The position numbers and the translations under genes were made by a program. Shown piece by piece: positions 7,786 to 55,582 of a stretch of DNA of 57,194 bases. This stretch comes from an uncultured Frankiales bacterium (GTDB taxonomy: Bacteria; Actinomycetota; Actinomycetes; Mycobacteriales; SCTD01), in the NCBI GenBank assembly GCA_966212015.1, contig CBIHPE010000001.1, positions 1-57,194 of the forward strand, read 5' to 3'. The notes under the pieces were generated by a model. That model did no database searches, was not told the DNA's origin, and worked only from the letters and a program-made list of their open reading frames with translations. The first letter of the stretch is position 1, and the number at the start of each line of letters is the position of its first letter.

Positions 7786-7793
7786 TTGGGTCG

Positions 7794-19813: not shown

Positions 19814-19823
19814 GCGCCGAGGA

Positions 19824-19882
19824 TACGTGGACGTCCTCGCAGTTGGCTAGTCCCTAAGTTACTTCCAAGTACGTGGACGTCC
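19824..19882. promoter_or_regulatory. Two copies of TACGTGGACGTCC in the icmF / acyl-CoA dehydrogenase divergent intergenic region
   Basis: Exact 13-mers at 19824-19836 and 19870-19882, each containing the palindrome GGACGTCC. The second sits in the 16-bp near-palindrome ACGTGGACGTCCATGT. Confidence 0.45.
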
Positions 19883-37102: not shown

Positions 37103-37105
37103 CGA

Positions 37106-40458: not shown

Positions 40459-40485
40459 CGCTTCAGGGTAAGTGCCCGAAACGGG

Positions 40486-41109
40486 TCAGGAGACCAGCTT
40501 GAGGGCGTTCGCGACGTACTTCTCGAGGATCTGCTCGCGGGTGCGGGGCGAGTCGGGGGTCCACCACTCGGGCAGCCGCACGCCCATGGCGCCGATCGCC
40601 TTGGCGTCCAGGTAGGGGTCGGTGCTGTGGAAGACACCCATCCGGACGCCTCGCTCGATGACGTCGATGCTGATCTGCTCGGACTGCGTCCGGATCGCGA
40701 CGACGTCGGCGTACTGCTCAGGGGTGAGGGCACGCAGCTCGCGGTTGGTGAGCCGAGCCATCGACGGGAAGTCGAGGTGCACGCGGACGTGGGCCGACAC
40801 CGTGGCGCGGAGCTGGTCGACGGGGTCGGACCCCGCGTCCATCAGCGCGTCGCGCAGCGACTCGAAGTGGGACCGGTGACCGATCAGCGCGAGGTCGAAC
40901 AGCAGGTCCTGCTTGCTCGCGACGTGGAAGTAGATGGCGCTGGGCTGCTGGCCCAGGGCGTTCGCGATGTCGCGGATGGAGACGGCGTGGAAGCCCTCCT
41001 GCCCGAACAGCTCGAGGGCCACCTCGTAGAGCTTGCGCTTCGCGGGCGACATCTCGAGGCCGGGCGGGAGCAGGCCCTCGGTCGCGAGAACCTCAGCAGT
41101 CATGGCCAC
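40486..41109 (-). CDS. TetR-family transcriptional regulator (divergent from the fused ABC operon)
   Basis: 207 aa. HTH VSIRDIANALGQQPSAIYFHV. ATG 41103 is an alternative start. Confidence 0.9.
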   Translation of the reverse strand: MAMTAEVLATEGLLPPGLEMSPAKRKLYEVALELFGQEGFHAVSIRDIANALGQQPSAIYFHVASKQDLLFDLALIGHRSHFESLRDALMDAGSDPVDQLRATVSAHVRVHLDFPSMARLTNRELRALTPEQYADVVAIRTQSEQISIDVIERGVRMGVFHSTDPYLDAKAIGAMGVRLPEWWTPDSPRTREQILEKYVANALKLVS

Positions 41110-41114
41110 AGCCT

Positions 41115-41124
41115 AACGATCGTT
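41115..41124. promoter_or_regulatory. Palindrome AACGATCGTT; related AACGAT-TGATCA at 41225-41236
   Basis: Perfect 10-bp palindrome 6 nt upstream of the TetR start. A second AACGAT lies next to palindromic TGATCA just before the ABC start. TTGACA at 41180-41185 is a possible -35. Confidence 0.3.
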
Positions 41125-41240
41125 CGGTCAGCAAGCGAGACCTTTTCAAGGCTCGTGTGAGCGAAATCTCCCACAGGTGTTGACAGCGACGCAACACAAG
41201 GAGCAATCTTCGGCTCCCCAGCAGAACGATTGATCAGTAG

Positions 41241-44200
41241 GTGAGGCTGCGCATGCCGTATCGCCGGCTCGTGAGCCGTCCGGAGCTGCTGCTCCTGGTC
41301 GCGCTCGTCGTCGGCTGCTCCTTCCTCTCGGAGGGGCTCCCGCTCGGCATCGCCGGGCTGGGGGTCGTCACCGGCTGCATCGTCGGGCTGCACGCCATGG
41401 GCATCGTGCTCGTCTACTCGCGGACCCGGATCCTGTCCTTCGCGCAGTTCGGGCTCGGCGCGTTCGCCTCCACGCTGTTCTTCGCCTGCATCTTCTACAA
41501 CCAGTGGGCGGTCCTCGGCGACGGCGTCTGCAAGTGCCTGGCCCCGGACGGCGCCAACCTGTACCAGCTGCAGCACCACCCGACTGCCTACCGCGCGTAC
41601 CTCGCGCACGAGCACCCGTGGGCGCTGGTGCTCAACATCGTCATCACCGTCGTGCTCGCCGTCCTGTTCGCGCTGGACGCGGGCAAGACGGTCTACAACA
41701 AACACACGACGTTCTTCTACCGCGCCCCCGCGATCGGCCCGACGATCGCGACGCTGGCGTTCGCGGGGATCCTGAGCGGGGCTGCCGGGGCGCTGACCCT
41801 GCGCACGAAGCAGACCTTCGGCCACTACATCTGGCAGTGGTGGCCCTGGGGACCGGTGCCCGGCACGGGCATCCACGGGAAGCCGGCGGTCCCGGAGGGC
41901 ATCTTCGAGATGCCCCACCAGAAGGACCTCGGCTTCTCCCTGAGCGGCGGCGCGACGTTCCACCTGTACGACGTCCTGGCGGTGCTCACGGCGCTGCTCG
42001 CGCTCGGGTTCGTCACGCTCCGCTTCCGGGTGGGGCGCCGTGGCCTGCTGAGCCGGGCTGCCGCCGCCAACCTCGAGCGGTCGGCGACGCTCGGCGTCGA
42101 CGTCGTGAAGGAGAGCCGGGGCCCGTGGCGGGTCGCCGGTGCCCTGGCCGGCCTGTCCGGCGTGCTGGCGATCGCGACCGGTGGCGGCCAGCCCGTGACC
42201 GGGCTCGACGTGAGCGTCCTGACGAGCGTGCTCGCGGCCGTCGTCCTGGCCCGGCTGACCAGCCCGGGCTGGGCGCTGCTCGCCTCGGTGCTGCTGGGGG
42301 TCCTCGACCAGGGCATGTACTGGAACCTGCGGTCCCACACCCAGTACCAGGGGGCGCTGTTCGTCATCATCGGCGCGGCCCTGCTCATCCAGCGCGGGCG
42401 CAAGAACCGCGCCGAGCGCGACAGCGAGTCGGTCTTCACGTCCGCGACCGAGCCGCGCCGGGTGCCCCTGCAGCTGCGCAACGCGCCCGGCGTGAACGGC
42501 TTCCTGCGGGCCAACGCGCTGCTCGCGGGCGCGATCCTGATCAGCTACCCGCTCTTCACGACGCCCGGCCAGCTGAGCCAGGGCCTCGTCATCGTCGCCA
42601 ACATGGTGCTCGGCCTGTCGATCCTGGTGCTCTCTGGCTGGGGCGGGCTGGTCAGCCTCGGACAGCTGTCCGTGGCGGCCGTGTCGGCGTACGCCGTGGC
42701 GATCGCCGGCGCGACCTGGCACCTGCCCATGCCGCTGGCTCTCCTGCTCGGCGCCTTCGCGGCCGCGCTGGTCTCACCGGTGGTCGGCTTCCCGGCACTG
42801 CGGCTGCCCGGCCCGTTCGTCGCCATCATGACGCTGGCCTTCGCGCTCGCGATCCCGGCGGTGCTGCTCAACCCGGACCTGCTGGGCGACGCGCTCCCCG
42901 GCAACCTGCCGCGGCCCGTGCTCCTCGGCCTCGACTTCGACAGCGACCGCTACTTCTACTGGTTCTCGCTCCTGGTGCTCGCCGGCGTGCTCGCGCTCGT
43001 GACCGGCCTCCGCCGGTCCCGACTGCGCCGGGCGCTGATCGCGGCCCGCGACAACCAGCTCGCGACGGAGGCCTTCGGCGTCGACGTCACGCGGCTGCGG
43101 CTCGAGGCCTTCGCCGTGTCAGGCTTCATCGCCGGCCTGGGCGGCGGACTCCTGGCGTACGCCAACAGCGGGGTCCAGGGCGACGCCTTCGCGGCACCCA
43201 GCAGCATCCTGATCTTCCTGCTGGTCGTCATCGGCGGGCTGTCCGCCGTCTCTGGCCCGGTGCTCGGGGCCGGCACCTTCGGGCTCGTGTCGCTGCTCGG
43301 TCCGACCTGGGCCGGCACCTACATCGGCCTCGGCACGCTCTTCATCTTGGCGGCCCGGCCGAACGGCCTCGCGGGCCTCGTGACCAGCCTCCGCGACGCG
43401 GCGATCCGCGTGATCATGCACCTGCAGGGCAACGACCTCATCCGCTTCGGCGGCGCCCGGGTCGCCATCGCCGACCGCGGTGCACAGGCGCCGGTCGTGC
43501 CCGTGACCTACCGCCTGGTCGGCGACGGGTTCGGTCCGGTCGAGGGCACCCGGCTGCGGCCCGTCGAGGGCGTTGCCGCCGTGGAGCAGGTGGTCGAGCC
43601 CGAGCTGGTCGACGAGGTCGAGCAGGCGCTCTCCCGACTGGCCTGCCACCGGCTCGACGTCAGCTACGGCGGCGCGAGCGCCGTCACGGGCGTCTCGCTG
43701 TCGGTGGCTCCGGGCGAGATCCTCGCGATCGTCGGCCTCAACGGCGCCGGCAAGACGTCGCTGCTGCGGGCGCTCGCGGGTCTCGAGCCGGCGGCCCACG
43801 GCACCGTGGAGATCAACGGCACCGACGTCACCCTGATGCTCCCGCAGGACCGGGCCGGACTGGGCCTGGGCTACGTGCCGGGTGGGGCCGCGGTGCTCCC
43901 GACGCTGACGGTCCGGGAGAACCTCGTCGTCGCAGGCGGCGACGACGACTCGATCGAGGAGATGGTCACCCGCTACCCGGCCCTGGGTCAGCGGCTCGAG
44001 ACCATGGCCGGCAACCTGTCCGGCGGCGAGCAGCAGGTGCTCGCGCTCGCGCAGGGCGTCCTGCGCCGGCCGTCTGCTCTGCTCGTCGACGAGCTGTCAC
44101 TCGGCCTGTCGCCGGAGGCGCTGTCGGCGACGCTCGACCTGATCGTGCAGCTGGCCGACGAGGGCACAGCGATCGTGCTGGTGGAGCAGTCGATCAGCAC

Positions 44201-45164
44201 CGCGATGTCGATCGCCGACTCCGCGGTCTTCCTCGAGAACGGCCGGGTCCGCTACCAGGGGCCGGCGCAGTCGCTGCGCGACCACCCCGAGCTGTTCGCC
44301 AGCGTCGCCTTCGGCGCCGGCGGGGCGAGCACCGGTGGCGGCTCGGAGCTCTCCCGCGCTCTCAAGCAGCAGCGCACCGAGCGCGAGCCGGTGCTCGTCG
44401 TCGAGCACGTCAGCGCGGCTTACGGCGACGTGCGCGTCGTCGACGACGTGTCCTTCGACCTGGCGGCCGGCGAGGTCGTCGGCGTCCTCGGTCCCAACGG
44501 CGCCGGCAAGACGTCGCTGTTCGACGCGCTGTCGGGACTGCTGCCCGTCGCCGAGGGCACCGTCAACCTGCTGGGTACGGACATCACGGGGACCAGCTCG
44601 CACCGGCGCGCGCAGCTCGGCCTGATGCGCTCCTTCCAGAGCGTGCGGCTGTTCCCCTCCTTGACCGTCCGAGACACGATCGCCGTCGCCCTCGAGACGC
44701 GCCTGCAGGTGAAGAGCTCGGCCTTCGCCGGCTTGTGGCTGCCACCGGCGCGCGCCGAGGAGCGTCGCACCGACGAGCGCGTCGACGGCCTGCTCGAGCT
44801 GCTGCGCCTGGAGAAGGTCGCGGACGCCAGCATCTCCTCCCTGTCGCTGGGGTCGCGCCGGATGGTCGACCTGGCGTGCCAGCTGGCGGCGCGTCCGAAG
44901 GTGCTGCTGCTTGACGAGCCGGCTGCGGGTCTGGCGGCGGGGGAGACGGAGCTGCTGGGTCCGCTGGTGAGCCGGATCAGCAGCGACCTGGACTGCGCAG
45001 TCCTGATCATCGAGCACAACGTGCAGGTGCTCGCGTCCGTCGCCGACCGCCTGATCGCCATGAGCAACGGCGCGGTGATCGTCGAGGGTGCCCCGAACGA
45101 CGTCCTGAACGACCCCGAGGTGCGCGGTGCGTACTTCGGGTCCCGACAGCTGCAGAACTCCTGA
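41241..45164 (+). CDS. Single-polypeptide HAAT-type ABC transporter: LivH-like TMD + LivM-like TMD + LivF-like NBD + LivG-like NBD
   Basis: 1307-aa uninterrupted ORF. Two polytopic halves. NBD1: GLNGAGKTS / LSGGEQQ / LLVDELSLGLSP. NBD2: GPNGAGKTS / LSLGSRR / LLLDEPAAGL. ATG 41253 is an alternative start. Confidence 0.88.
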   Translation: MRLRMPYRRLVSRPELLLLVALVVGCSFLSEGLPLGIAGLGVVTGCIVGLHAMGIVLVYSRTRILSFAQFGLGAFASTLFFACIFYNQWAVLGDGVCKCLAPDGANLYQLQHHPTAYRAYLAHEHPWALVLNIVITVVLAVLFALDAGKTVYNKHTTFFYRAPAIGPTIATLAFAGILSGAAGALTLRTKQTFGHYIWQWWPWGPVPGTGIHGKPAVPEGIFEMPHQKDLGFSLSGGATFHLYDVLAVLTALLALGFVTLRFRVGRRGLLSRAAAANLERSATLGVDVVKESRGPWRVAGALAGLSGVLAIATGGGQPVTGLDVSVLTSVLAAVVLARLTSPGWALLASVLLGVLDQGMYWNLRSHTQYQGALFVIIGAALLIQRGRKNRAERDSESVFTSATEPRRVPLQLRNAPGVNGFLRANALLAGAILISYPLFTTPGQLSQGLVIVANMVLGLSILVLSGWGGLVSLGQLSVAAVSAYAVAIAGATWHLPMPLALLLGAFAAALVSPVVGFPALRLPGPFVAIMTLAFALAIPAVLLNPDLLGDALPGNLPRPVLLGLDFDSDRYFYWFSLLVLAGVLALVTGLRRSRLRRALIAARDNQLATEAFGVDVTRLRLEAFAVSGFIAGLGGGLLAYANSGVQGDAFAAPSSILIFLLVVIGGLSAVSGPVLGAGTFGLVSLLGPTWAGTYIGLGTLFILAARPNGLAGLVTSLRDAAIRVIMHLQGNDLIRFGGARVAIADRGAQAPVVPVTYRLVGDGFGPVEGTRLRPVEGVAAVEQVVEPELVDEVEQALSRLACHRLDVSYGGASAVTGVSLSVAPGEILAIVGLNGAGKTSLLRALAGLEPAAHGTVEINGTDVTLMLPQDRAGLGLGYVPGGAAVLPTLTVRENLVVAGGDDDSIEEMVTRYPALGQRLETMAGNLSGGEQQVLALAQGVLRRPSALLVDELSLGLSPEALSATLDLIVQLADEGTAIVLVEQSISTAMSIADSAVFLENGRVRYQGPAQSLRDHPELFASVAFGAGGASTGGGSELSRALKQQRTEREPVLVVEHVSAAYGDVRVVDDVSFDLAAGEVVGVLGPNGAGKTSLFDALSGLLPVAEGTVNLLGTDITGTSSHRRAQLGLMRSFQSVRLFPSLTVRDTIAVALETRLQVKSSAFAGLWLPPARAEERRTDERVDGLLELLRLEKVADASISSLSLGSRRMVDLACQLAARPKVLLLDEPAAGLAAGETELLGPLVSRISSDLDCAVLIIEHNVQVLASVADRLIAMSNGAVIVEGAPNDVLNDPEVRGAYFGSRQLQNS

Positions 45165-46189
45165 TGAGCCCCACGAGAGGACCCCAGAAGAACATGGCCA
45201 CTCCCACGGTCACCCGCCAGCGCAACAAGCCGGCGTCGATGTCCGCATCCGGGTTCCAGGAGGCGTTCGAGCGGATCGTTGCGAACGCGTCGCTTGTCAT
45301 CAAGGGCAAGGAGGAGGCGCTGCGGCTGGTGCTGACGGCGATGATCGCTGACGGTCACTGCTTGTTGGAGGACATGCCGGGGACGGGCAAGACGATGATG
45401 GCGCGGGCGCTGTCGACGTCGATCAACGCCAAGAGCAACCGCATCCAGTGCACGCCGGACCTGCTGCCGTCGGATGTGACGGGCGCGCCGGTGCTGGACA
45501 CGCGGAACGGGACGTTCACCTTCCGTGAGGGGCCGGTGTTCGCGAACGTGCTGCTGGTCGATGAGATCAACCGGGCGACGCCGAAGACGCAGTCGGCGCT
45601 GCTGGAGGCGATGCAGGAGCGGAACGTCACGCTGGACGGCGTGACGCACAAGCTCCCGACGCCGTTCCTGATCCTGGCGACGCAGAACCCGGTGGAGCAG
45701 GCGGGCACGTTCCAGCTGCCTGAGGCGCAGCTGGACCGGTTCCTGATCAAGCTGTCGGTCGGCTACCCGGACCGGGAGGCGGAGGGTGAGCTGCTGGATG
45801 CGAACAAGTCGACGGAGGCGATCACCCGCCTGGGGTCGGTGTCGAGCACGGAGGAGATCTTGGCGATGCAGGCGTTCTGCCAGGACGTGGACCTGCCTGA
45901 GCCGGTGAAGATGTACATCGTCGACGTGTGCCAGGCGACCCGCACCGACCCGTCCCTGCTGATGGGCGCGAGCTCGCGTGCCTCGATCTCGCTCGTCAAG
46001 GCGTCACGTGTCCGCGCCGCGTCGCAGGGCCGTGACGTGGTCCTGCCGGACGACGTCCGCGCGCTGCTCTCGGCCGTCATCGAGCACCGGCTGATCCTGA
46101 CCCCGGACGCGCAGCTGCGCGACGAGACCGTCACCAACGTCCTCGAGCGGATCCTCACCCGCATCCCCGTCCCCCTCGGCGTCGGCTAG
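45164..46189 (+). CDS. MoxR-family AAA+ ATPase
   Basis: 341 aa. Walker A DMPGTGKT, Walker B VLLVDEINRATPKTQSALLEAMQE, LPEAQLDRF. The start shares 1 nt with the ABC stop (TGATG). ATG 45194 is an alternative start. Confidence 0.92.
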   Translation: MSPTRGPQKNMATPTVTRQRNKPASMSASGFQEAFERIVANASLVIKGKEEALRLVLTAMIADGHCLLEDMPGTGKTMMARALSTSINAKSNRIQCTPDLLPSDVTGAPVLDTRNGTFTFREGPVFANVLLVDEINRATPKTQSALLEAMQERNVTLDGVTHKLPTPFLILATQNPVEQAGTFQLPEAQLDRFLIKLSVGYPDREAEGELLDANKSTEAITRLGSVSSTEEILAMQAFCQDVDLPEPVKMYIVDVCQATRTDPSLLMGASSRASISLVKASRVRAASQGRDVVLPDDVRALLSAVIEHRLILTPDAQLRDETVTNVLERILTRIPVPLGVG

Positions 46190-46195
46190 CTGAAG

Positions 46196-47464
46196 ATGGC
46201 TGCCCTCTCCCGTCGGCGCGCGACCGGTCCCAGCTCGGAGGTTGCGGGCTTCGGCGCGCTCGTCGAGCGGTTCACCGGTCTCACGTCAGCTGGGGCGATC
46301 GTCCTCGTGGCGAGCCTGCTCGGCTACGTGCTGGCCCGCCAGCTCGGTGGCCGCGCGCTGTTCCTGCTCGTCTCCGCGGGTGTCCTGCTCGTGGTCGCCG
46401 CCGCCGTCACCAGCCGTCGCAAGCGGCGGCTCACCGCTGAGCGGTCCGCGCTCCCGACGCGGATGCGGGTCGGGCAGGTCGCTGAGGTCGAGCTGACGGT
46501 GAAGTCGCCGGGGCGGCTCCGGGCCTTCGTCGTGCAGGACCACATGTCCTCGCTGCTCGCCGACCAGGTGCGGGTCCCGGTGCCGACCGTCGGTTCGGAG
46601 CAGGACTTCGTGCACGCGTACTCGATCCGCCCGACGCTCCGTGGCGTCTACCAGCTGGGCCCGCTGGCGGCGGAGTGGACCGACCCGTTCGGGCTCGCGC
46701 GGCACCAGCAGAAGCTCAGCGACCCGGTCGACGTGATCGTGCACCCGACGACCGACGCGGTGTTCGACCGGCCGCTGACCCGGATGTGGGAGGACCCGCC
46801 GTTCCGCCCGCCGGTGTCCAAGCCGTGGCCGCAGGGCTTCGAGTTCTACGGCATGCGCGACTACGTGCCCGGTGACGACCCGCGCCGGATCGTCTGGACC
46901 GCCATGGCCCGCACCGGGAAGTACCTCGTCCGCGAGTCGGAGCAGGGCATCACCGACCGCATCACCGTCGTGCTCGACAACAACGCCAGGGCGCACTCGC
47001 CGGGCTACCCGTCGGAGACCTTCGAGCTGGCCATCCGGGCCTGCGCCTCCCTCGGCGCCTGGAACATCAAGCAGGGCTTCTCGGTCCGCTTCCTCACCAA
47101 CGACTCGGGCCAGGGCCCGGAGCTGCGGGGCAGCAAGGCCCGCATCAGCCTGCTCGACGAGCTGGCCAAGCTCGAGCTCACCGACGTGCCCGTCAGCAAG
47201 GCCATCGAGCGGGTCATCACCGAGCGCCGCGGCGGCACCCACATGTGCCTGGTCTCAACCGGGTTCGACAACCGCACGGCCACGCGCGTCCGCATGCTCA
47301 CCGACAAGGGGATGTCGCTCGTCGTCTGCCTGGTGCGCTGGGAGGACAGCGACCCGAACGCCGCGCGGCGGGCCCGCGAGATCGGCGCGCAGGTCGTGCA
47401 GGTCTCCCCGGGCGACCAGCTCGAGCACGCCTTCGCCCACGGCCTCGGGCTGGCCGTCCGATGA
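46196..47464 (+). CDS. DUF58 (VWA-like) domain protein
   Basis: 422 aa. Two N-terminal TM helices. DUF58 signature FYGMRDYVPGDDPRRIVW...RESEQG. Confidence 0.88.
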   Translation: MAALSRRRATGPSSEVAGFGALVERFTGLTSAGAIVLVASLLGYVLARQLGGRALFLLVSAGVLLVVAAAVTSRRKRRLTAERSALPTRMRVGQVAEVELTVKSPGRLRAFVVQDHMSSLLADQVRVPVPTVGSEQDFVHAYSIRPTLRGVYQLGPLAAEWTDPFGLARHQQKLSDPVDVIVHPTTDAVFDRPLTRMWEDPPFRPPVSKPWPQGFEFYGMRDYVPGDDPRRIVWTAMARTGKYLVRESEQGITDRITVVLDNNARAHSPGYPSETFELAIRACASLGAWNIKQGFSVRFLTNDSGQGPELRGSKARISLLDELAKLELTDVPVSKAIERVITERRGGTHMCLVSTGFDNRTATRVRMLTDKGMSLVVCLVRWEDSDPNAARRAREIGAQVVQVSPGDQLEHAFAHGLGLAVR

Positions 47465-50355
47465 CCTCGATCCTCGACCAGCCCGCTGACCTCGACCACC
47501 TCGAGAAGCCCGACCTCGACCACCTCGCCGACGACCCCGCCGAGCACGGCCCGGAGGACGAGCAGGAGCGCGCTCTCGCGCCCGCGGCTCTCGCGCTCGC
47601 AGCCGTGTCGGCCCTGCTGTCGTCCGCCGGGGCCGCGTGGATGGTCGGCGGCATCTTCCGGGGCCTCGAGGCCCGCCTCGTCGGACTGCTCGGCGTCCTC
47701 ATCGGCTGCGGCTTCGTCTACCTCGGCACCCGGCTGCGCAGCTCCGTCCTCCAGTACCTGACCCTGCCGGCAGCGCTCCTCGCCGGTGCCGTTCTCATGA
47801 GCAGCGCGTCCGGGGCGGGTACGTCCTCGCTGCCGGCGCTCGTCAAGGACGCCGCGACCACGTCGCAGGTGCTCCAGCCGCCGATCGACTTCGCGCCCGG
47901 CTGGCGTCTGATCCTCGTCGTCATCCTCGCGCTGCTGTCGTCCGCTGCCTGCTCGCTCGCGCTGTCGCTGAGCCGGCCCCGGCTCGCCGTCGCCGTGCCC
48001 GCCCCGCTCGTCGTCGCACCCGCCTTCATCCAGCCGAGCTCGTCGGCGGTCGTCACGAGCTCCGTGAGCGTCGGCCTCGTGATGATGGCGCTCGCCACGT
48101 CGTACGCCGCCGACGGCGTGGGCGACACCTTCGACGCGAGCTTCGAGCTGCGCCGCCTCGCGCGCAGCGTGCTCGCCGGCGGCCTGCTCATCGCGACGCT
48201 CATCGCCGCGAGCAAGGTGTCGTTCCTGTTCCCGGAGAAGGACAAGCACCACGTCGTCCCGCCGCGTCGCCCACCCGTGAGCCCGCCGCAGCCGGACGTC
48301 CCGCTCTACACGGTCACCGGCGCGCTGAACGGCCCGCTCGAGGCCGGCGTCATCGACGTCTACTCCGTCAAGGAGGGCGCCTGGCTGCTGCCCCCCGTCG
48401 ACAACCTGCGGCTGAAGCGCCTCAAGTCCGACGCGGACATCCCGGGTGCGCCGGCGCCGTTCGGCGCCTCGACGAGCTTCAGCGTCACGGTGAAGCAGGC
48501 GACCGGTCACCTGCTGCCGTCGGTCTCGTCGGCGCTGCACCTCGACGGTGATGTGAAGGTCGACTACGACCCCCGCACGCAGTCGCTGTCCCTCCCCTCG
48601 AGGCCGGTCTACACCGGGCTGCACTACACGGTCACGACGAACCCCGTCCCCGACGGGAAGCAGCTCAGCGCGGTCAAGGGCGACGTCCCGTACGCGCTGA
48701 GGGAGTTCCTCACCGCGCCCGACGCGCCGCCGGCCGTCACCGACCTGCTCGCGAAAGCCCCGCAGGCGCCTTACGCGAAGCTGCAGTCGCTCCGCGCGGC
48801 GCTCTACCGGAAGTTCACCGCCGCGGGACAGGGCAAGCCGACGGACGTCGACGCCGACCGGGTCGTGCAGCTGCTCCGCGGCGGCACCGGCAACCCCTAC
48901 GAGCTCACCGCCTCCGAGGCGCTGCTGGCCCGCTGGGCCGGCATCCCGAGCCGCATCGGGTTCGGCTACTACAACGGCAACCCGCTCGACGACGGCTCCG
49001 TCGAGTTCCGCCCCGCCAACGCCGCGACCTACCTCGAGGTCTACCTCGCGCCCTACGGCTGGGTGCCCATCATCGGTGTCCCGCCGCGTGCGCAGCAGAG
49101 CCTGTCCAACAACCAGCGCAACAACGACTCGAGCATCGCCGCATCGCCCGAGCTCGGCATCAACGTCTACCTGCCCGTGAAGCAGGACAACCGGTTGCCG
49201 CTCTACGAGTACGCCCGCTACTACCTGGTGCGCGCACTCCCGATCGCCCTCGGCGTGGGCGCGCTCGTGCTCCTCTACCCCGTCGTCCTGAAGCGGGTCC
49301 GCCGGCGGCGGCGCGCGGCCTGGGCGAGCCAGTTCGGTCCCGCCGGTGCGATCGCGGTGGCCTACTGCGCCCTGCGTGACCAGATGATCGACCTCGCCCT
49401 GCCGGGGCGCGGCCTGACCCCCCTGGAGCTGGTCGAGATCATCGAGGAGGACGAGGAGCACGCCGAGCTGGCCTGGCTCGTCACGCGCGGGCTGTGGGGC
49501 GACCTGCGGCACCGCCTCACGGAGGAGGACGCGGCGGCAGCGCGGGCCCTCAGCGCCTCGGTGAGCGCGCGGCTGTCGAAGGCCCAGCCCGAGACGGCGC
49601 GGCTCCTCGCTGCCGTCTCCCGGGCCAGCCTCCGGCACCCGCACAGCCTCGAGGTGCCCAACGCGTGGTGGGAGCTGCGGCTGCCGCGGCTGCGCGTGCC
49701 CCGGCTGCGGGCGCTGCGCCCCAGCGTCGCGACGTCGCTCCTCGCCGTGCTCGCGACGCTGACCCTCGGCGGCTGCTCGTCCGGCGGGCACCACGCCGAG
49801 CCGAGCGTCGCCTTCCCGACCCGGCTCGCCCCGACTGCCGTCGCAGGGCTCGAGGTGCACGAGGAGAAGCGCGCCACGGCTGCCTACGTCAAGGCCGCCA
49901 AGGACGACGCGGTGATCGTCAACGAGGGCAAGGTGCTCTCCTTCAACAAGAACGGGCTCGTCCAGGCCGCCCTTCAGGTCGCGCAGCTCAAGCCTGGCTA
50001 CGTGAGCACGGACAAGGAGGTCCGGGACGCGATCACCCGGAGTGTCGGCAGCGGCAACCAGGTCGCGAAGCTCAGGCCCGAGGGCTCGCACGACCTCTAC
50101 AACGTCGTCGACGGCAGCCAGCGCATCTACCTCTGGTTCCCCACGGCGAAGTCGATGGCCCTGCTGGTCCTGCGCACGCAGATCACCGAGGGAGCCGCGG
50201 AGGCTCTCGCGCGCGGCCTCATCGACTACTCCGACGGTGGCGACATCAGCGAGGCAGCACTCTCCGCAGCCTTCGCCGACTCCACCGGACCGACCCCCAG
50301 CGGCACCCCGACCAGCAGTCCCAGCCCCAGCGCCTCCCCGGAGCCGACGCCATGA
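47461..50355 (+). CDS. Polytopic transglutaminase-like protein (apparently lacking the Cys-His-Asp triad) with DUF4129-like region and an extra C-terminal lipoprotein-like module
   Basis: 964 aa from ATG 47461 (ATGA overlap). N-terminal multi-TM region. TGase-core-like stretch ARWAGIPSRIGFGYY...YLEVYLAPYGWVPI. A TM, then an acidic DUF4129-like segment, then an in-frame lipobox LTLGGC at 49759-49776. Confidence 0.8.
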   Translation: MTSILDQPADLDHLEKPDLDHLADDPAEHGPEDEQERALAPAALALAAVSALLSSAGAAWMVGGIFRGLEARLVGLLGVLIGCGFVYLGTRLRSSVLQYLTLPAALLAGAVLMSSASGAGTSSLPALVKDAATTSQVLQPPIDFAPGWRLILVVILALLSSAACSLALSLSRPRLAVAVPAPLVVAPAFIQPSSSAVVTSSVSVGLVMMALATSYAADGVGDTFDASFELRRLARSVLAGGLLIATLIAASKVSFLFPEKDKHHVVPPRRPPVSPPQPDVPLYTVTGALNGPLEAGVIDVYSVKEGAWLLPPVDNLRLKRLKSDADIPGAPAPFGASTSFSVTVKQATGHLLPSVSSALHLDGDVKVDYDPRTQSLSLPSRPVYTGLHYTVTTNPVPDGKQLSAVKGDVPYALREFLTAPDAPPAVTDLLAKAPQAPYAKLQSLRAALYRKFTAAGQGKPTDVDADRVVQLLRGGTGNPYELTASEALLARWAGIPSRIGFGYYNGNPLDDGSVEFRPANAATYLEVYLAPYGWVPIIGVPPRAQQSLSNNQRNNDSSIAASPELGINVYLPVKQDNRLPLYEYARYYLVRALPIALGVGALVLLYPVVLKRVRRRRRAAWASQFGPAGAIAVAYCALRDQMIDLALPGRGLTPLELVEIIEEDEEHAELAWLVTRGLWGDLRHRLTEEDAAAARALSASVSARLSKAQPETARLLAAVSRASLRHPHSLEVPNAWWELRLPRLRVPRLRALRPSVATSLLAVLATLTLGGCSSGGHHAEPSVAFPTRLAPTAVAGLEVHEEKRATAAYVKAAKDDAVIVNEGKVLSFNKNGLVQAALQVAQLKPGYVSTDKEVRDAITRSVGSGNQVAKLRPEGSHDLYNVVDGSQRIYLWFPTAKSMALLVLRTQITEGAAEALARGLIDYSDGGDISEAALSAAFADSTGPTPSGTPTSSPSPSASPEPTP

Positions 50356-51332
50356 AGCGACCCCTCGTCCTGGCCCTCGCAGCCTGCGCCCTCGCGACCG
50401 CCTGCGGGCCGACGACCCACCTCGACCTGCGGCTGCGCGGCGTCGAGATCACGTCGGTGCGTGTGCTGACGCCGGCGATCACCCTCGTGCCCCCGGCGAC
50501 CACGCCTCCGCCCGCGTCGCTCCCGCCGGTGCCGCCCATCACGACGTACCTGCCCCCGTCGCCGGCTCCGGGCGCGAGCGCGCCGCCCGCGGTCCTGACC
50601 CCGCCGCCCGCGTGTCCGACGGCCGGCCAGTTCGACGCCCCCGAGTTCGCTGCTCCCGCTGCGGTGAAGGGGATCCCGGCGAACGCGGAGTACGTGCAGA
50701 AGGCGCTCGGGACGTATGCCGAGAACGGCACCCAGAAGCCGCTGGACGGCATCGTCGACGTGAAGGTCGTCCGGCTCCCCGACAGCACCACGACGGCGAA
50801 CCAGGCCGTCCGGTCCTGGCGGGTGGAGCGGCACAACGGCAAGGCGAGCTCGGTCGAGGTCTACCAGCTCGTCGGTCCGTCGAGCCTCGCAAGCGCGGCC
50901 TCCCCGGTCTCGCCGGGGATCTACCTCGTCGGGCTGGCCTGGGACGACCCGACGCGCGGCAAGCTCACGTTCCAGCCGACCGGCAACGGGCTGTGGATCC
51001 TGCCCGACCCGGTGGCCGAGGCGACGAACGACACCCAGTACGTCGGCACCGCCACCGACCCGAACACGGTGACCACGCTCGAGCTGCTGCGCAACGTGCG
51101 GGCGCACAAGCGGGTCGACGCCTGCGGCAAGCTCATCGACACCTTCACGGTCGAGATGAGCGGCACGCTCGTGTCGCCGACCGACCAGTACCAGGTGAGC
51201 TGGACGCAGCAGCTCGCCACGGCCTACGGCGGTCTCGACGTCGCGAGCACGTTCTCCCTCGTGTCGCCGCTGACGACGTTCCGCTGGAGCAGGTCGCTCA
51301 CCTCGACGACCGTCCCGAAGGCGTCGTCGTGA
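50352..51332 (+). CDS. Hypothetical lipoprotein with a Pro-rich linker
   Basis: 326 aa. MKRPLVLALAACALATACG lipobox. ATGA overlap with the upstream stop. Pro-rich tract, then a beta-looking domain. Confidence 0.8.
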   Translation: MKRPLVLALAACALATACGPTTHLDLRLRGVEITSVRVLTPAITLVPPATTPPPASLPPVPPITTYLPPSPAPGASAPPAVLTPPPACPTAGQFDAPEFAAPAAVKGIPANAEYVQKALGTYAENGTQKPLDGIVDVKVVRLPDSTTTANQAVRSWRVERHNGKASSVEVYQLVGPSSLASAASPVSPGIYLVGLAWDDPTRGKLTFQPTGNGLWILPDPVAEATNDTQYVGTATDPNTVTTLELLRNVRAHKRVDACGKLIDTFTVEMSGTLVSPTDQYQVSWTQQLATAYGGLDVASTFSLVSPLTTFRWSRSLTSTTVPKASS

Positions 51333-51538
51333 GCGCCCCGCTCCGCCGGCCGGGGCGCACCCCCGGCAGCGTCAACCTCGCCGTCGGCCTGGGGCTGCTG
51401 GTGCTGCTGCTCCCGCTCCTCCTCAACGCGGCGACCTCCTCGCCCCCGACGGCGGCGGAGTTCTCGCCGAACGCCAAGCAGGTCATCAAGAAGGCGCCGC
51501 CCGGCCAGGCCGCCGCCGTGACCGGGACAGGGCAGTGA
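51329..51538 (+). CDS. 69-aa signal-anchor ORF, probably the N-terminus of the downstream binding protein
   Basis: GTG 51329 (GTGA overlap). RRPGR n-region and hydrophobic core VNLAVGLGLLVLLLPLLL. Ends at TGA 51536-51538 in the same frame as the next ORF. Confidence 0.6.
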   Translation: MSAPLRRPGRTPGSVNLAVGLGLLVLLLPLLLNAATSSPPTAAEFSPNAKQVIKKAPPGQAAAVTGTGQ

Positions 51539-51547
51539 TCGGCCCCT

Positions 51548-51577
51548 GGCGCCGGTCCGTCCGCCGGACCTGGCGCC
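51548..51577 (+). other. GC-rich hairpin 10 nt downstream of the in-frame TGA
   Basis: GGCGCCGGTCC (51548-51558) pairs with GGACC-T-GGCGCC (51566-51577). 11 bp, one bulged T, 7-nt loop GTCCGCC. Confidence 0.6.
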
Positions 51578-51625
51578 TCGCCGTCCCCCACTCCGAGCCC
51601 GACCCCGACGCCCACCCCGAGCCTG

Positions 51626-53068
51626 GTGCCCCAGAACCAGCTGAAGCGGTGCGTCGGCCCGCCCCCGCTGCGGCAGATCGAGGACCCGCAGTCGCCGCCC
51701 TGCATCGCCTACTGGAACGGCGACAACGGCGGTGCCACGTCCAAAGGCGTGACGAAGGACGCGGTCTACGTCGCGGTGCCCACGCCCGAGAACGCGAAGG
51801 ACCAGTACGACGCGCTGTTCGCGTTCTTCAACGCGCGGTTCCAGCTCTACGGGCGCAAGCTCGTCCCTAACTACTGCGACACCACGGCATCCGGCAGCAG
51901 CGACCAGGCGACGCAGGTCTCGGACGCAGCGACCAACGCCTCCGGGTGCAACGGCAAGTACCACGTGCCCTTCATCTCGACGATGTACCGCACGGCCAAC
52001 GGGCCCTACTACATGCCGGAGATGGGCTGCCGCTACAAGGTCATCGCGGTCGGCTCCTACTCGCCCTACGACAGCAAGCAGCTGGGCAAGTGCCCGGGCT
52101 ACGAGTACCAGTACCCGATGCTCGTCGACGACGAGTTCGCCAACATCGGCGAGTGGATGTGCAAGCGGCTCGCGGGCAGGAAGGCGGAGTACGTCTCCGG
52201 CAACGACGGCTCGACGCCGGGCAAGCCGCTCAGCTCGCTGACCCGAAGGTTCGGGATCCTCATCGAGCCCTTCACCGACGACGACCCGGTCATGCGGCGC
52301 AGCGCGTTCAACCCGATGACGTCGCGGTTGCGCGCCTGCGGAGCCGATGCCCCGGCGAAGGACCAGATCCTCAACCCCGTCGTCGGCGAGTTCGACGCAG
52401 CGTCGGCCCAGAACACCATGCTGCAGCTGAAGAACGACGGCGTCACCTCCGTCGTCTGCATGTGCAACTTCTTCAGCTTCGGCACGCTGGCCCGGGCGGC
52501 GTCGACCAACGCCTACCACCCTGAGTGGATCAGCTCGACCTTCGGCCTCAACGACGTCAACAGCTCGTTCTTCCTCGGGGCGGCGCCGACGGACCAGATG
52601 CAGCACCTGTTCGGCGTCACCTTCCAGCCGCCCCTGGTCCGCCCCCTGCTCAACCCCTACAACATCGCCGTGCACGAGGGGAACCCGGCACAGGGCGGCG
52701 ACACGACCAGCTTCGTCGAGGCCAAGCTCGAGATCTACCGCGCGCTGCTGGTGATCGCCTCCGGCATCCAGATGGCCGGCCCGAAGCTGACCCCGAAGAC
52801 CTTCCAGCAGGGGCTCGAGAAGACCACGTTCCCGAACCCCGACACCGAGACGCACGCCGGCCATGTCGGCTTCAAGCCCAACACCTACTCGATGACCGAC
52901 GACGGCGCCGAGTGGTACTGGTCCACGACCGCCCGCGGCCCGTTCACCGACAGCGACAGCCACCCCGGAACGGTCTGCTACCTCAACGACTTCCGGCGCT
53001 ACACCCTCGGCAACTGGCCCACCGGCAAGGGTCCGTTCTTCACCGGCACCTGCAAGTCGTCGCCGTGA
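51626..53068 (+). CDS. Cys-rich type-1 periplasmic-binding-fold (LivJ-like) protein lacking its own signal peptide
   Basis: First ATG/GTG/TTG after the TGA is GTG 51626. The frame is open from 51539 and encodes a Pro/Ser/Thr/Gly linker. 12 Cys. PBP1-like start GVTKDAVYVAVP. Confidence 0.75.
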   Translation: MPQNQLKRCVGPPPLRQIEDPQSPPCIAYWNGDNGGATSKGVTKDAVYVAVPTPENAKDQYDALFAFFNARFQLYGRKLVPNYCDTTASGSSDQATQVSDAATNASGCNGKYHVPFISTMYRTANGPYYMPEMGCRYKVIAVGSYSPYDSKQLGKCPGYEYQYPMLVDDEFANIGEWMCKRLAGRKAEYVSGNDGSTPGKPLSSLTRRFGILIEPFTDDDPVMRRSAFNPMTSRLRACGADAPAKDQILNPVVGEFDAASAQNTMLQLKNDGVTSVVCMCNFFSFGTLARAASTNAYHPEWISSTFGLNDVNSSFFLGAAPTDQMQHLFGVTFQPPLVRPLLNPYNIAVHEGNPAQGGDTTSFVEAKLEIYRALLVIASGIQMAGPKLTPKTFQQGLEKTTFPNPDTETHAGHVGFKPNTYSMTDDGAEWYWSTTARGPFTDSDSHPGTVCYLNDFRRYTLGNWPTGKGPFFTGTCKSSP

Positions 53069-54288
53069 GCCAGGACGTGAGAGAGCTCGGCTTCGACCCC
53101 GAGCGGCTGGCCCGCATCGACAAGCTGCTCGCCGGCTACGTCGATGACGGCAAGCTGGCGGGCTGGCAGGTCGCGATCACCCGCAAGGGCCAGGTGGTGC
53201 ACGACGCCGGCTACGGCTGGCGCGACCGCGAGGCCGGCAAGCCCGTCGAGAGCGACACCCTGTGGCGGATCGCGTCGATGACGAAGCCGATCACCTCGGT
53301 GACGGCGATGACCCTCTGGGAGGAGGGCGTCTTCGACCTCAACGAGCCGGTCAGCACGTGGATCCCGTCGTTCGCGGACGCGCGGGTCTACACCGGCGGT
53401 GTCGGCCGCACGATGCAGACGAAGCCGGCCACCGAGCCGGTGCGGGTCTGGCACCTGCTCTCGCACACCTCCGGCATGACGGCCGGGTTCCTGCGCAGCT
53501 CGCACGTCGACCAGCTCTACCGCGACGCGGGCTACGAGTTCGGCGCGCCGGCAGGGCACGACCTCGCGGCATGCGTCGACGACTGGGCCCGGCTGCCGCT
53601 GCTGTTCAACCCCGGGAGTGCCTGGGGCTACGGCGTCTCGACCGACGTCGTCGGCCGGCTCATCGAGATCTGGACCGGCCAGCGCCTCGACCAGGCCTTC
53701 GCGAACCGGGTGCTCGAGCCGCTCGGGATGAAGGACACCTGCTGGTGGGTCGGGGACGCGCGCGCAGATCGGCTCGCGGCGCTCTACGTCCCCGATGACG
53801 ACTTCCAGGCCGTGCGCTACGAGCTCAGCGACCACGTGGGGCGCAGCGAGCCGACGATCCACTCCGGTGGTGGCGGGCTCATCAGCACGATGCCGGACTA
53901 CCTCCGCTTCACGCAGATGCTCAACGGCGACGGCGAGCTCGAGGGCACCCGCATCCTGTCGCCGCGCACGCTGCGGCTGATGCGCTCCAACCACCTGGTC
54001 GGCGACCTCGACGACAACCGCGCCGACGGCTTCGCCGAGACGACGTTCCCGGGCGTCGGCTTCGGTCTCGGCTTCGCTGTCCTCGAGGACCCGCTGCTGA
54101 TGCACTCCGTCGCCAACAAGGGCGAGTACTTCTGGGGCGGCATCTACGGGACGACCTTCTGGTGCGACCCGGTCGACGACCTGTCGTGCGTCTTCATGAC
54201 GCAGCTGCTGCCGTCCGACATGCACCCGATCCGCGCTCAGCTGCGGCAGCTCGTCTACAGCGCGCTCATCGACAGGAGACCCGCGTGA
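53065..54288 (+). CDS. Beta-lactamase-family serine hydrolase (paralog 1, no signal peptide)
   Basis: 407 aa from GTG 53065 (GTGA overlap). SxxK motif IASMTKPIT. Class-C/EstB-like. Confidence 0.85.
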   Translation: MSQDVRELGFDPERLARIDKLLAGYVDDGKLAGWQVAITRKGQVVHDAGYGWRDREAGKPVESDTLWRIASMTKPITSVTAMTLWEEGVFDLNEPVSTWIPSFADARVYTGGVGRTMQTKPATEPVRVWHLLSHTSGMTAGFLRSSHVDQLYRDAGYEFGAPAGHDLAACVDDWARLPLLFNPGSAWGYGVSTDVVGRLIEIWTGQRLDQAFANRVLEPLGMKDTCWWVGDARADRLAALYVPDDDFQAVRYELSDHVGRSEPTIHSGGGGLISTMPDYLRFTQMLNGDGELEGTRILSPRTLRLMRSNHLVGDLDDNRADGFAETTFPGVGFGLGFAVLEDPLLMHSVANKGEYFWGGIYGTTFWCDPVDDLSCVFMTQLLPSDMHPIRAQLRQLVYSALIDRRPA

Positions 54289-55472
54289 GCGGCTTCACGC
54301 CAGCGGGTCTCGCCCGGCTCGACAAGCAGCTGGCCAAGCACGTCGACGAGGGTCGCCTCGCCGGCTGGCAGGTCGCGGTCACCCAGCACGACGAGGTGGC
54401 CCACGACGCCGCCTACGGCTGGCGCGATCGCGAGGCCGGGCTGGCCGTCGAGAGCGACACGATCTGGCGCATCGCGTCGATGACCAAGCCGATCACCTCC
54501 GTCGCCGCCATGACGCTGTGGGAGGAGGGGGCGTTCGACCTCAACGACCCGATCAGCCGGTGGCTGCCCGAGTTCTCCGACATGCGCGTCTACACCGGCG
54601 GCATCGGGCGCACCCTCACGACAGTGCCTGCGACCGAGCCGATCCGGGTGTGGCACCTGCTGACCCACACGTCCGGGCTCTCCGCCGGGTTCATGCGCGT
54701 CTCCCACGTCGACGAGCTCTACCGCGACGCCGGGTACGACCTGGGCTCGCCGGCGCAGAACGACAGCCTCGCCGAGTGCGTCACCGACTGGGCCGGTCTG
54801 CCGCTGCGGTTCCAGCCCGGCACGGCCTGGGGGTACGGCGTCAGCCACGACGTCCTTGGCCGGCTCGTCGAGATCTGGTCCGGCCAGACCCTCGACGTCG
54901 CCTTCCGCAACCGCGTGCTCGGGCCGCTCGGCATGACGGACACGACCTTCTGGTGCGACCCGTCCCGCGCCGACCGTCTGGCCGCGCTCTACCAGCCCGG
55001 CGACGGCGACCTGGCCGTCCGCGGCGAGTGGCCCGACAGCCCCACCATGCCGAAGGTCCTGTCCGGGGGCGGGGGCCTCTACAGCACCCTCGCCGACTAC
55101 ACCCGGTTCACGCGCATGCTCGCGAACGGGGGTGAGCTCGAGGGCACGCGAGTCCTCGCCCCCCGCACCGTCGACCTGATGCGCTCCAACCACCTCAAGA
55201 GCGACCTCGGGCAGCTGTCCACCGGCGGCTTCGCCGAGACCAGCTTCGACGGCATGGGCTTCGGCCTCGGCTTCGCCGTCGTCCTCGACCCGCTGAGGAC
55301 GCACAGCATCGCCCGACCCGGCGAGTTCAACTGGGGCGGCATCTTCAGCACCTGCTTCTGGGTCGATCCGGTCGAGGAGCTGAGCTGCGTCTTCATGACT
55401 CAGCTCATGCCGTCCAGCACGCATCCGCTGCGACAGCAGCTGCGCCAGCTGGTCTACAGCGCCGTCGCCTAG
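54285..55472 (+). CDS. Beta-lactamase-family serine hydrolase (paralog 2, no signal peptide)
   Basis: 395 aa from GTG 54285 (GTGA overlap). Long stretches identical to paralog 1 (YGWRDREAG, WRIASMTKPITSV, MTLWEEG). Confidence 0.85.
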   Translation: MSGFTPAGLARLDKQLAKHVDEGRLAGWQVAVTQHDEVAHDAAYGWRDREAGLAVESDTIWRIASMTKPITSVAAMTLWEEGAFDLNDPISRWLPEFSDMRVYTGGIGRTLTTVPATEPIRVWHLLTHTSGLSAGFMRVSHVDELYRDAGYDLGSPAQNDSLAECVTDWAGLPLRFQPGTAWGYGVSHDVLGRLVEIWSGQTLDVAFRNRVLGPLGMTDTTFWCDPSRADRLAALYQPGDGDLAVRGEWPDSPTMPKVLSGGGGLYSTLADYTRFTRMLANGGELEGTRVLAPRTVDLMRSNHLKSDLGQLSTGGFAETSFDGMGFGLGFAVVLDPLRTHSIARPGEFNWGGIFSTCFWVDPVEELSCVFMTQLMPSSTHPLRQQLRQLVYSAVA

Positions 55473-55498
55473 TCAGATCGGGTCATCTTTCGATCTGA
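55473..55498 (+). terminator. Hairpin TCAGATCG-N10-CGATCTGA immediately after the operon's last stop
   Basis: Perfect 8-bp stem starting 1 nt after TAG (55470-55472). AT-richer than its surroundings. No clear U-tract. Confidence 0.35.
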
Positions 55499-55582
55499 GT
55501 CGGGATGTCCATGGTTCGACCGACATCGGTGTGGTGATCTTTGGGCACTCGAGTCCCAGACGCCCGATGAGGGGTGATCGCG

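Follow-up and report, generated by a model that had tools for sequence, protein, structure and literature searches.

The operon described here raises the question why a MoxR ATPase, a DUF58 protein and a transglutaminase-like protein should be encoded between the membrane/ATPase core and the binding protein of an ATP-binding cassette (ABC) importer. It is located at positions 41241-55472 on the + strand of a 57,194-nucleotide (nt) stretch of contig CBIHPE010000001.1 from an uncultured Frankiales bacterium (assembly GCA_966212015.1), and this whole stretch, with a GC content of about 70%, is referred to as the window. MoxR-DUF58-TgpA trios are very common in bacteria and archaea, and proteolysis, cell-wall cross-linking and signalling are the published ideas on what they do. 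We found that this trio is linked to one family of transporters in nearly all related loci with enough flanking sequence, across phyla and down to 33% identity, and that its transglutaminase-like member has lost the catalytic triad throughout its family. The trio module is very probably a functionally integrated accessory of the importer. An earlier examination of the bare DNA, here called the sequence-only reading, was not aware of a described system with this arrangement. In our search of the full-text literature, no report of an ABC importer operon that contains a MoxR trio was found.

Organisation of the locus

Eight + strand open reading frames (ORFs) span about 14 kb (41241-55472), and a TetR gene is located upstream on the opposite strand. 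The features of the locus are the following (aa, amino acids).

40486-41109, - strand: TetR-family regulator, 207 aa, with PF00440 (TetR_N) and PF17932 (TetR_C_24)
41110-41240, between the divergent genes: putative promoter/operator region with two GAACGATCGTTC-like palindromes and a TTGACA -35-like hexamer near 41184
41241-45164, + strand: ABC fusion protein of the hydrophobic amino acid uptake transporter (HAAT) type, 1307 aa, with LivH-like and LivM-like permeases and LivF/UrtE-like and LivG/UrtD-like ATPases (PF02653 twice, PF00005 twice, PF12399)
45164-46189, + strand: MoxR (MRP-type) AAA+ ATPase, 341 aa, cytoplasmic (PF07726, E 1e-61; PF17863, AAA_lid_2, E 1e-18)
46196-47464, + strand: DUF58 protein, MoxR partner of the von Willebrand factor A (vWA)-like type, 422 aa (PF01882, E 7e-10, above the cut-off)
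47461-50355, + strand: TgpA-like polytopic protein, a predicted pseudo-transglutaminase, 964 aa (PF01841, E 2e-10; TgpA_N below the cut-off)
48751-49068, + strand: transglutaminase-like core of this protein, residues 431-536, within the outward loop 258-591
49693-49776, + strand: predicted internal lipoprotein-type signal peptide of this protein, residues 745-772, with RLRVPRLRALR, a hydrophobic stretch and the lipobox LGG/C772
50352-51332, + strand: cluster-specific predicted lipoprotein, 326 aa, with a lipobox, a Pro-rich linker and an all-beta barrel-like domain; no Pfam or NCBIfam match
51329-53068, + strand: membrane-anchored Cys-rich solute-binding protein with a modelled LivK/LIVBP fold (AlphaFold and Foldseek) and a TGA at 51536-51538
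53065-54288, + strand: predicted cytoplasmic family VIII carboxylesterase of the beta-lactamase fold, 407 aa (PF00144, E 1e-65), with SMTK (S-x-x-K)
54285-55472, + strand: second predicted cytoplasmic family VIII carboxylesterase, 395 aa (PF00144, E 1e-66); nearest solved structure 7pp3
55473-55498, + strand: hairpin with a 10-bp stem and no U tract, directly 3' of the last stop

The ABC and MoxR genes overlap by TGATG (45162-45166), and a 6-nt gap separates MoxR from DUF58 (46190-46195). ATGA overlaps join DUF58 to the transglutaminase-like gene (47461-47464) and the latter to the lipoprotein gene (50352-50355), and GTGA overlaps connect the last four genes (51329-51332, 53065-53068 and 54285-54288). 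All seven consecutive junctions are thereby between -4 and +6 nt, and equally tight junctions were found in orthologous loci. Therefore, the layout is not due to chance. The sequence-only reading had described the genes as a single, tightly coupled set with a TetR gene diverging upstream, and every junction coordinate that it gave was exact. Six of the eight Pfam families that it expected were matched by profile search, while PF13559 and PF13458 were absent from the window proteins.

The TetR gene adjoins the cluster in orthologous loci, too. Two GAACGATCGTTC-like palindromes (41114-41125 and 41224-41235) flank the TTGACA hexamer in the divergent intergenic region and are the sole matches in the entire window. 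Members of the same motif family were located in the intergenic regions of the loci L006, L008 and L010-L012, and the Dormibacteria-type loci carry CAAACAAGCGCTTGTTTG in place of GAACGATCGTTC. The hairpin reported behind the last stop is present as well, as evidence for a terminator, however, it is weak, with no U tract and a fold of -24.9 kcal/mol over 65 nt (z = -1.7 against shuffled sequences). An Rfam search gave no match within the cluster.

Conservation of the association

Co-localisation of the trio and the ABC genes in related genomes had been set beforehand as the test of a link between them. We scanned 185,579 species genomes with the alignment of the transglutaminase-like protein under strict patterns, which returned 11 loci, all of them from metagenome-assembled genomes (Actinomycetota, "Frankiales", "Mycobacteriales" and one Candidatus Dormibacteria). 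LivF/LivG-type ATPases were encoded directly upstream of MoxR, DUF58 and the transglutaminase-like protein in each of the 11, and all loci with enough flank contained TetR, ABC, MoxR, DUF58, transglutaminase-like protein, lipoprotein and binding protein. A metagenome scan based on a 43-sequence alignment gave 326 relatives, the best 80 loci of which were mapped (33-73% identity in the transglutaminase-like protein). Where the flank was long enough, MoxR was found immediately upstream in 47 of 51 loci and DUF58 in 49 of 51, and tandem LivF/G-type ATPases ended just before MoxR in 40 of 41. A large binding-protein homologue was present somewhere in 19 of 25 loci, at a variable position. The link thus passed the test in both data sets, down to 33% identity. 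In an exhaustive search the transglutaminase-like family comprised 607 representative clusters (157 at E <= 1e-30). So far the operon has been found just in metagenome-assembled and metagenomic sequences, and its carriers are uncultured.

The association is also robust to changes in gene order. In the Dormibacteria locus (L002/L013) and in the metagenome contigs L003 and L021, the order is rearranged to TetR, binding protein, ABC, MoxR, DUF58, transglutaminase-like protein and lipoprotein. The linkage is thus retained when the gene for the binding protein has moved and when the phylum is a different one. Moreover, percent identities of the transglutaminase-like protein co-vary with those of DUF58, binding protein and lipoprotein (rho 0.70-0.77). 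The corresponding correlation with the ATPase region (rho 0.15) was set aside, since the window clade's fused proteins had been binned separately, and a neighbour-joining tree was used instead.

Six related transporters lack the trio. They are fused ABC proteins (35-37% identity) and pairs of a LivHM permease with a protein in which a major facilitator superfamily (MFS) domain is joined to the ATPases. These systems comprise just one or more ABC genes and, overlapping with them, a gene for a 560-590-aa binding-protein homologue (E 1e-18 to 1e-24). In the neighbour-joining tree of the ATPase regions, which was built without bootstrap and with these six as the only trio-less taxa, a single branch parts them from all trio-linked systems. 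Since ABC and large binding protein occur as a pair without the trio, the trio is an accessory and not an obligatory part. We conclude that the base module is the ABC transporter with its large anchored binding protein, and that the accessory of MoxR, DUF58, transglutaminase-like protein and lipoprotein is restricted to this transporter family and is inherited with it once present.

Proteins of about 1000 aa that join an MFS_1 domain to two LivF/G-type ATPase domains are encoded beside a LivHM permease in distant relatives (L023:4416-7523, L099, L100, L101, P0192, P0223 and P0229-P0240), and in P0192 the MFS_1 domain, the ATPases and the LivHM permease form one chain of 1719 aa. We know of no description of such an MFS-ABC ATPase fusion.

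The transglutaminase-like protein

A hydrophobicity scan combined with the positive-inside rule predicts about seven N-terminal transmembrane helices with Arg-rich loops inside. By the same rule, the loop 258-591 (about 330 residues) with the transglutaminase-like core is placed outside. It is followed by a transmembrane segment at 592-610, the stretch KRVRRRRR and a helical region (611-750) that would be cytoplasmic, and the C-terminal domain of about 190 residues (772-964) is again placed outward. The sidedness of the loop agrees with the experimentally supported periplasmic site of TgpA (PMC3507681). The TgpA_N domain was detected at E <= 0.01 in 21 of 43 family members.

The profile of the core reaches one entry of the PDB, namely 6g49, the periplasmic domain of Pseudomonas aeruginosa TgpA (E 7e-6), while a PDB sequence search with the full-length protein gave no match. 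When aligned to 6g49 by HMMER, the family has the nearly invariant Pro479 in place of the catalytic Cys (GFC-AHYA), Ala522 in place of the His (H-AW) and Ile, Leu or Val538 in place of the Asp (VD-PT). No Cys occurs near the catalytic position in the 43 members of the family (27-64% identity). Besides, all 43 have an aromatic residue (Tyr, Phe or Trp) at position 480, and Glu481 is invariant. The protein does not have the Cys-His-Asp triad of active transglutaminases, and its domain is predicted to be catalytically dead across the family. The transglutaminase part of the trio proposed from sequence alone thus needs correction. As the triad is lost, the outward domain would bind rather than catalyse, that is, it would serve as a scaffold and not as an enzyme.

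Of the roughly 33 aligned family members in which the C-terminal domain is present, about 24 have the internal lipobox, which suggests that the domain is lipidated and perhaps cleaved. No relation of the domain to the lipoprotein of the cluster was seen (hhalign probability 0.2), and no relative was found in the PDB. The assignment of region 611-750 to PF13559 (DUF4129) was rejected, as the likeness was by eye alone and the profile search had no match at E <= 0.01 in any of the 43 members, the window protein included.

Natural fusions indicate what the outward face may hold. In P0398 and P0394 the transglutaminase-like protein and a domain like the cluster lipoprotein are joined in one chain (27% identity over 253 aa, E 1.6e-6, for the domain of P0398), and in P0332 and P0334 the transglutaminase-like protein has a C-terminal DUF4434 glycosidase-like domain (E ~1e-24). 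These fusions point to the outward face as an attachment place for binding or processing modules.

MoxR and DUF58

Walker A (GTGKT) and Walker B (VDEINR) motifs can be read in the MoxR translation, which is 83-92% identical to its close orthologues. A secondary, weak match to PF20030 was also obtained (E 1.5e-11). DUF58 has two predicted transmembrane segments (29-47 and 54-72) that form an N-terminal two-helix hairpin with Arg/Lys clusters on either side. The Arg clusters beside the hairpin place the body of DUF58 in the cytoplasm, on the same side as MoxR. Its metal-binding site looks degenerate (D-N-[DN]) when read without alignment to a canonical vWA domain, and we make no claim on it.

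A single-chain transporter

The ABC fusion matches PF02653 in two stretches (E 9e-36), and about 18 hydrophobic segments were counted in its residues 1-700 by the hydrophobicity scan. NCBIfam models identified UrtE at 801-1013 (288 bits, above the cut-off) and LivG at 1049-1301. Orthologues are 1290-1340 aa long. The start is ambiguous: the sequence-only reading had used GTG 41241, whereas the gene call on a sibling contig uses ATG 41253, which gives 1303 aa.

With its two BPD_transp_2 permease domains, LivF/UrtE-type and LivG/UrtD-type ATPases and BCA_ABC_TP_C tail, the protein has the domains of the HAAT importers (LivJ/K-LivHMGF and UrtABCDE; TC 3.A.1.4), and it would transport its solute inward. 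In contrast to HAAT systems, in which livHMGF encode separate subunit polypeptides, all four transporter domains are located in a single ORF here, and the LivF-like ATPase precedes the LivG-like one. The binding protein shares the LivK/LIVBP fold of HAAT partners, but it is about 580 aa long, anchored by a transmembrane segment, Cys-rich and below Pfam detection. Further differences are the accessory MoxR module, the MFS domain joined to the ATPases in some relatives, and neighbouring genes that point to esters or glycosides rather than to amino acids or urea.

A conventional HAAT operon is located next door on the - strand (33683-39306) and contrasts with the single-chain transporter. It encodes a TetR regulator (38683-39306), a 526-aa binding protein of the Peripla_BP_6 type (37106-38686), a 644-aa permease in which LivH and LivM are fused (35171-37105), LivG (34393-35250) and LivF (33683-34399).

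Lipoprotein and binding protein

The lipobox of the lipoprotein reads L-[AT]-[AG]-C, with a Cys that is invariant in 35 sequences, and lipidation is predicted from it. The family comprises 59 sequence clusters only, which are similar in size and have no other annotation, and its gene was present in every complete close-relative locus that we mapped. The AlphaFold model reached a mean predicted local distance difference test score (pLDDT) of 87. It showed a weak likeness to YmcC-like, DynF and DUF1849 barrels (best E 2.7e-4, template modelling (TM) scores 0.34/0.47).

In the binding protein, a signal anchor at the N-terminus is followed by a linker rich in Pro and Ser and by a Cys-rich domain of 480 aa. 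Neither Pfam nor NCBIfam gave a match for it, and a PDB search with its profile found none either. Its AlphaFold model, built from a 49-sequence alignment, has a pLDDT of 93, and the best Foldseek matches are the LivK/LIVBP-type structures 4n0q, 1z15 and 3td9 and the fatty-acid binding protein 4n03 (E about 5e-11 to 1e-10, TM scores 0.5-0.7). On the strength of this model, we regard the protein as a genuine, very divergent type I solute-binding protein. The solute-binding domain expected by the sequence-only reading is therefore supported by fold, whereas its profile, PF13458, misses the window protein and matches 6 of the 49 family members.

This assembly does contain the in-frame TGA (51536-51538) that had been noted in the gene. 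The codon is located in the linker that follows the signal anchor and differs by one G-to-T exchange from GGA (Gly), and the NCBI gene call in the window covers just the 480-aa remainder from GTG 51626. On the sibling contig NODE_1632 (L018), which stems from another assembly, of a nearly identical organism, and is 99.7% identical (37 differences in 14,203 nt), the gene is intact, with GGA at that codon and a product of 579 aa. Homologues are likewise intact, with 560-595 aa. Therefore, the TGA reflects variation between strains or an error in the consensus and is not a feature of the design. Selenocysteine insertion and programmed read-through were ruled out by the position in a low-complexity linker and by the GGA of the sibling.

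Hydrolases and the likely substrate

Both hydrolases carry the SMTK nucleophile motif, and neither has a signal peptide or a hydrophobic N-terminus. The second is closest to the broad-range esterase EH7 (7pp3, E 5e-99; PMC9795927), and further matches of the pair include EstU1 (4ivi, E 2e-75), Est-Y29 and EstB (1ci8). Fold, S-x-x-K motif and sequence similarity assign both to the family VIII carboxylesterases, and ester hydrolysis is the predicted activity. They differ from the described members of the family (EH7, EstU1, Est-Y29 and EstB), with which they share fold and motif, in being two tandem paralogues translationally coupled to a transporter.

The clues to the transported solute come from the neighbouring genes, that is, from the esterases here and from glycosidases in relatives. 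Most Actinomycetota loci have one to three PF00144 genes; in L009 and L014 PF00144 was not detected despite sufficient flank. In the Dormibacteria locus a non-homologous PF00135 carboxylesterase takes the place of the PF00144 genes. Such a non-orthologous replacement supports an ester substrate, and an ester is most likely the compound imported in the clade of the window. In distant relatives the neighbours are GH2, GH13, GH31 with a ROK regulator, a GH78 rhamnosidase, and an FGGY kinase with an aldolase/dehydrogenase. In two distant loci an SBP_bac_5 (family 5) binding protein follows the lipoprotein position (L037:13689-15623 and L070:14016-15857), a type that normally serves Opp/Dpp-type and not HAAT permeases. 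As the catabolic neighbours vary, the constant part would be a general uptake platform with exchangeable specificity genes, as expected for a catabolic importer. The sequence-only reading had suggested that the hydrolases cleave imported amides, esters or peptides. The esterase part of this suggestion is supported for the present clade, by family VIII membership and by PF00135 in Dormibacteria, but the enzymes do not belong to the conserved core, and distant relatives have glycosidases and sugar kinases instead.

The solved structures closest to the TetR regulator are 3him, 3vpr, KstR2 and Mce3R. KstR2 and Mce3R respond to lipid-derived acyl-CoA ligands, and this likeness is only a hint at the type of substrate. 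The esterases, the glycosidases of the relatives and the confinement of the operator-like palindromes to the divergent intergenic region all favour a catabolic role.

Proposed mechanism and alternatives

We propose that the locus is a TetR-controlled operon for uptake and hydrolysis with a MoxR-driven scaffold. Its core would be the single-chain LivH-LivM-LivF-LivG importer together with the membrane-anchored, disulfide-rich binding protein of the LivK fold, and the two cytoplasmic carboxylesterases would cleave the imported ester. Between transporter and binding protein, MoxR, the DUF58 adaptor, the TgpA-like protein and the beta-rich lipoprotein would form a four-gene accessory module. Beside the transporter, the pseudo-transglutaminase with its C-terminal domain, which is possibly lipidated, and the lipoprotein may build a docking platform outside the cytoplasm. 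MoxR and DUF58 may act on the cytoplasmic parts of this scaffold and spend ATP to assemble or remodel the platform, which in turn would enable or tune how the substrate-loaded, tethered binding protein is handed over to the permease. Dedicated assembly or maturation factors that pair a MoxR ATPase with a vWA protein are known (RavA-ViaA, CbbQ-CbbO, NorQ-NorD and CoxD-E-F), and by analogy we infer a role of MoxR and DUF58 in assembly or remodelling. The sequence-only reading had put forward a chaperone or scaffold module that may assemble or gate the transporter. For the mechanism proposed here as a whole we estimate a probability of roughly one half.

Several observations weigh against this proposal. 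Related transporters do without the trio, which means that it is not needed for translocation as such. The physical tie between trio and transporter is deduced from genomic evidence, and the canonical trio offers no established function from which to extrapolate. The fold matches of the lipoprotein are weak (TM 0.34/0.47), and in this assembly the binding-protein gene contains a stop codon. As the esterases are clade-specific, an ester substrate applies to this clade at most. Finally, a promoter/terminator scan of 40000-57194 returned no promoter-like site and four terminator-like sites against 3.0 expected, and apart from a weak one within moxR, none was at a gene junction on the + strand. 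This kind of scan is not built for high-GC actinobacteria, however, and at 70% GC it is uninformative about a single transcript.

A stronger version of the proposal is tentative, and we regard it as possible rather than probable: these binding-protein-dependent importers may be a class not recognised before, which works as an envelope-spanning supercomplex with a dedicated MoxR motor, in which cytoplasmic ATP hydrolysis is passed via DUF58 and the dead TgpA-like scaffold to drive or license substrate capture outside.

Among the alternatives, a regulatory gate or sensor survives best, although it appears unlikely. The outward pseudo-transglutaminase and the lipoprotein would sense the substrate or the state of the envelope, and DUF58 and MoxR would switch the ABC protein, or MoxR would open access from the inside out; it would then be activity that is regulated and not assembly. 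Such a role would resemble the Esr pathway of Actinomycetales, which signals with MoxR, a vWA protein and the transglutaminase EsrD (bioRxiv 10.64898/2026.09.08.750141). Parts of the module are placed on either side of the membrane, its MoxR shows the weak PF20030 match, and the basic transporter type can dispense with the trio, as it could with a regulator. However, kinase, FHA, beta-propeller and effector genes are absent from every mapped locus, regulation is already provided by the TetR repressor, the start/stop overlaps suggest co-production as for structural partners, and gating of a transporter by MoxR has no known precedent.

It is decidedly improbable that the locus encodes a machine for envelope biogenesis or export, in which a lipid or cell-wall precursor is transported outward by the ABC protein and handled there by the TgpA-like protein and the lipoproteins, and the hydrolases are unrelated. 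The periplasmic TgpA of P. aeruginosa matters for viability and has a proposed cell-wall role (PMC3507681); the lipoprotein components, the internal lipobox and the odd MFS-ATPase fusion of relatives would also fit. Against this stand the LivK-type partner fold, permeases of a type (HAAT) known as importers only, and neighbours that are catabolic enzymes and sugar or ester regulators and not synthases. Moreover, TetR/ROK control is typical for catabolic loci, and with the triad lost, cross-linking chemistry is unavailable.

Could the trio simply be an independent neighbour, that is, a self-contained unit that was inserted by chance into an ABC operon and inherited along with it? In its canonical form, the trio is a mobile operon of three genes that occurs in many contexts (PMC3495828), and in Frankia alni it sits far from the liv genes. 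Nevertheless, the linkage in 40 of 41 loci at 33-73% identity, through changes of gene order and across phyla, the distinct triad-less clade formed by the transglutaminase-like family, the fusions to the cluster lipoprotein and the co-variation of identities (rho 0.70-0.77) leave this explanation very little credit. Membrane-proximal proteolysis, which Zhang and Aravind proposed for MoxR-vWA-YebA-like operons (PMC3495828) and which here would mean transporter quality control with vWA recruiting, MoxR unfolding and the transglutaminase-like peptidase cutting, is hardly credible, as the would-be peptidase has no Cys, His and Asp in 43 of 43 aligned members and, by topology and homology to TgpA, faces the side of the membrane opposite to MoxR.

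Relation to known systems

The system combines two known kinds, a HAAT importer and a MoxR-DUF58-TgpA module. Families and gene order of the trio are those of the three-gene MoxR-vWA/DUF58-TgpA (YebA-like) operon (PMC3495828), as in P. aeruginosa PA2875-PA2873, where TgpA is important for viability (PMC3507681). The gene content of that operon is complete here, with an AAA_3-type MoxR, a DUF58 membrane hairpin and a polytopic TgpA_N and Transglut_core protein. TgpA is an active transglutaminase, whereas the triad is replaced family-wide in the protein described here. This protein also differs in its cytoplasmic region, its internal lipoprotein signal peptide and its outward C-terminal domain, and it is accompanied by a dedicated lipoprotein. 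The module in our loci is almost always located within a HAAT-type ABC gene set, while in the Frankia alni case from the literature the trio and the liv genes are at separate loci.

With RavA-ViaA, CbbQ-CbbO, NorQ-NorD and CoxD-E-F the module shares the pairing of MoxR and a vWA-type adaptor inside the operon of the complex that is served. The adaptor here is a membrane-anchored DUF58, and the presumed client is a transporter or scaffold and not a metalloenzyme. MoxR, DUF58/vWA, transglutaminase-like and surface-exposed partners are also shared with the bifidobacterial PFNA operon (PMC8430577) and the Esr pathway. Those systems, however, have no ABC transporter and comprise FHA proteins, Ser/Thr kinases and sensors of the FN3 or beta-propeller type; such components were found neither in the window nor in the mapped loci, which likewise lack the beta-propeller or VMAP third component with kinase, FHA or effector that marks MoxR-vWA conflict and Esr systems.

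With these loci a widespread trio of long-open function gains its first concrete and testable partner, an ABC importer. A sub-family of the trio tied to a single partner allows one to ask whether the trio binds the transporter and whether the MoxR ATPase alters uptake. If the supercomplex existed, it would provide the first functional assignment of the trio, as a transmembrane mechanical adaptor, and the MFS-ATPase fusions would be a second unprecedented coupling in the same system. The loci also expose unusual designs, namely a four-domain single-chain HAAT importer and MFS domains on ABC ATPases. The carriers are abundant uncultured soil lineages (Actinomycetota and Dormibacteria), and the neighbouring genes suggest an uptake of esters or glycosides with relevance for soil carbon turnover, possibly including polyester breakdown.

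Other features of the window

The interval that separates the two TetR genes contains a - strand gene (39361-40458) for a protein of 365 aa, which has a hydrophobic segment at its N-terminus, a Pro/Lys-rich region and no Pfam match. An S8 subtilase gene (55571-57193, + strand) follows the operon and runs past the end of the window. Farther away are genes for phosphoenolpyruvate carboxylase (7452-10370, + strand) and for an IcmF-like fused B12-binding/MeaB/acyl-CoA mutase (16664-19846, - strand). Besides, Rfam gave a match to the ASdes small RNA at 7204-7271 on the - strand (71.6 bits, E 3.5e-15), which overlaps the + strand ORF 6814-7785 on the opposite strand.

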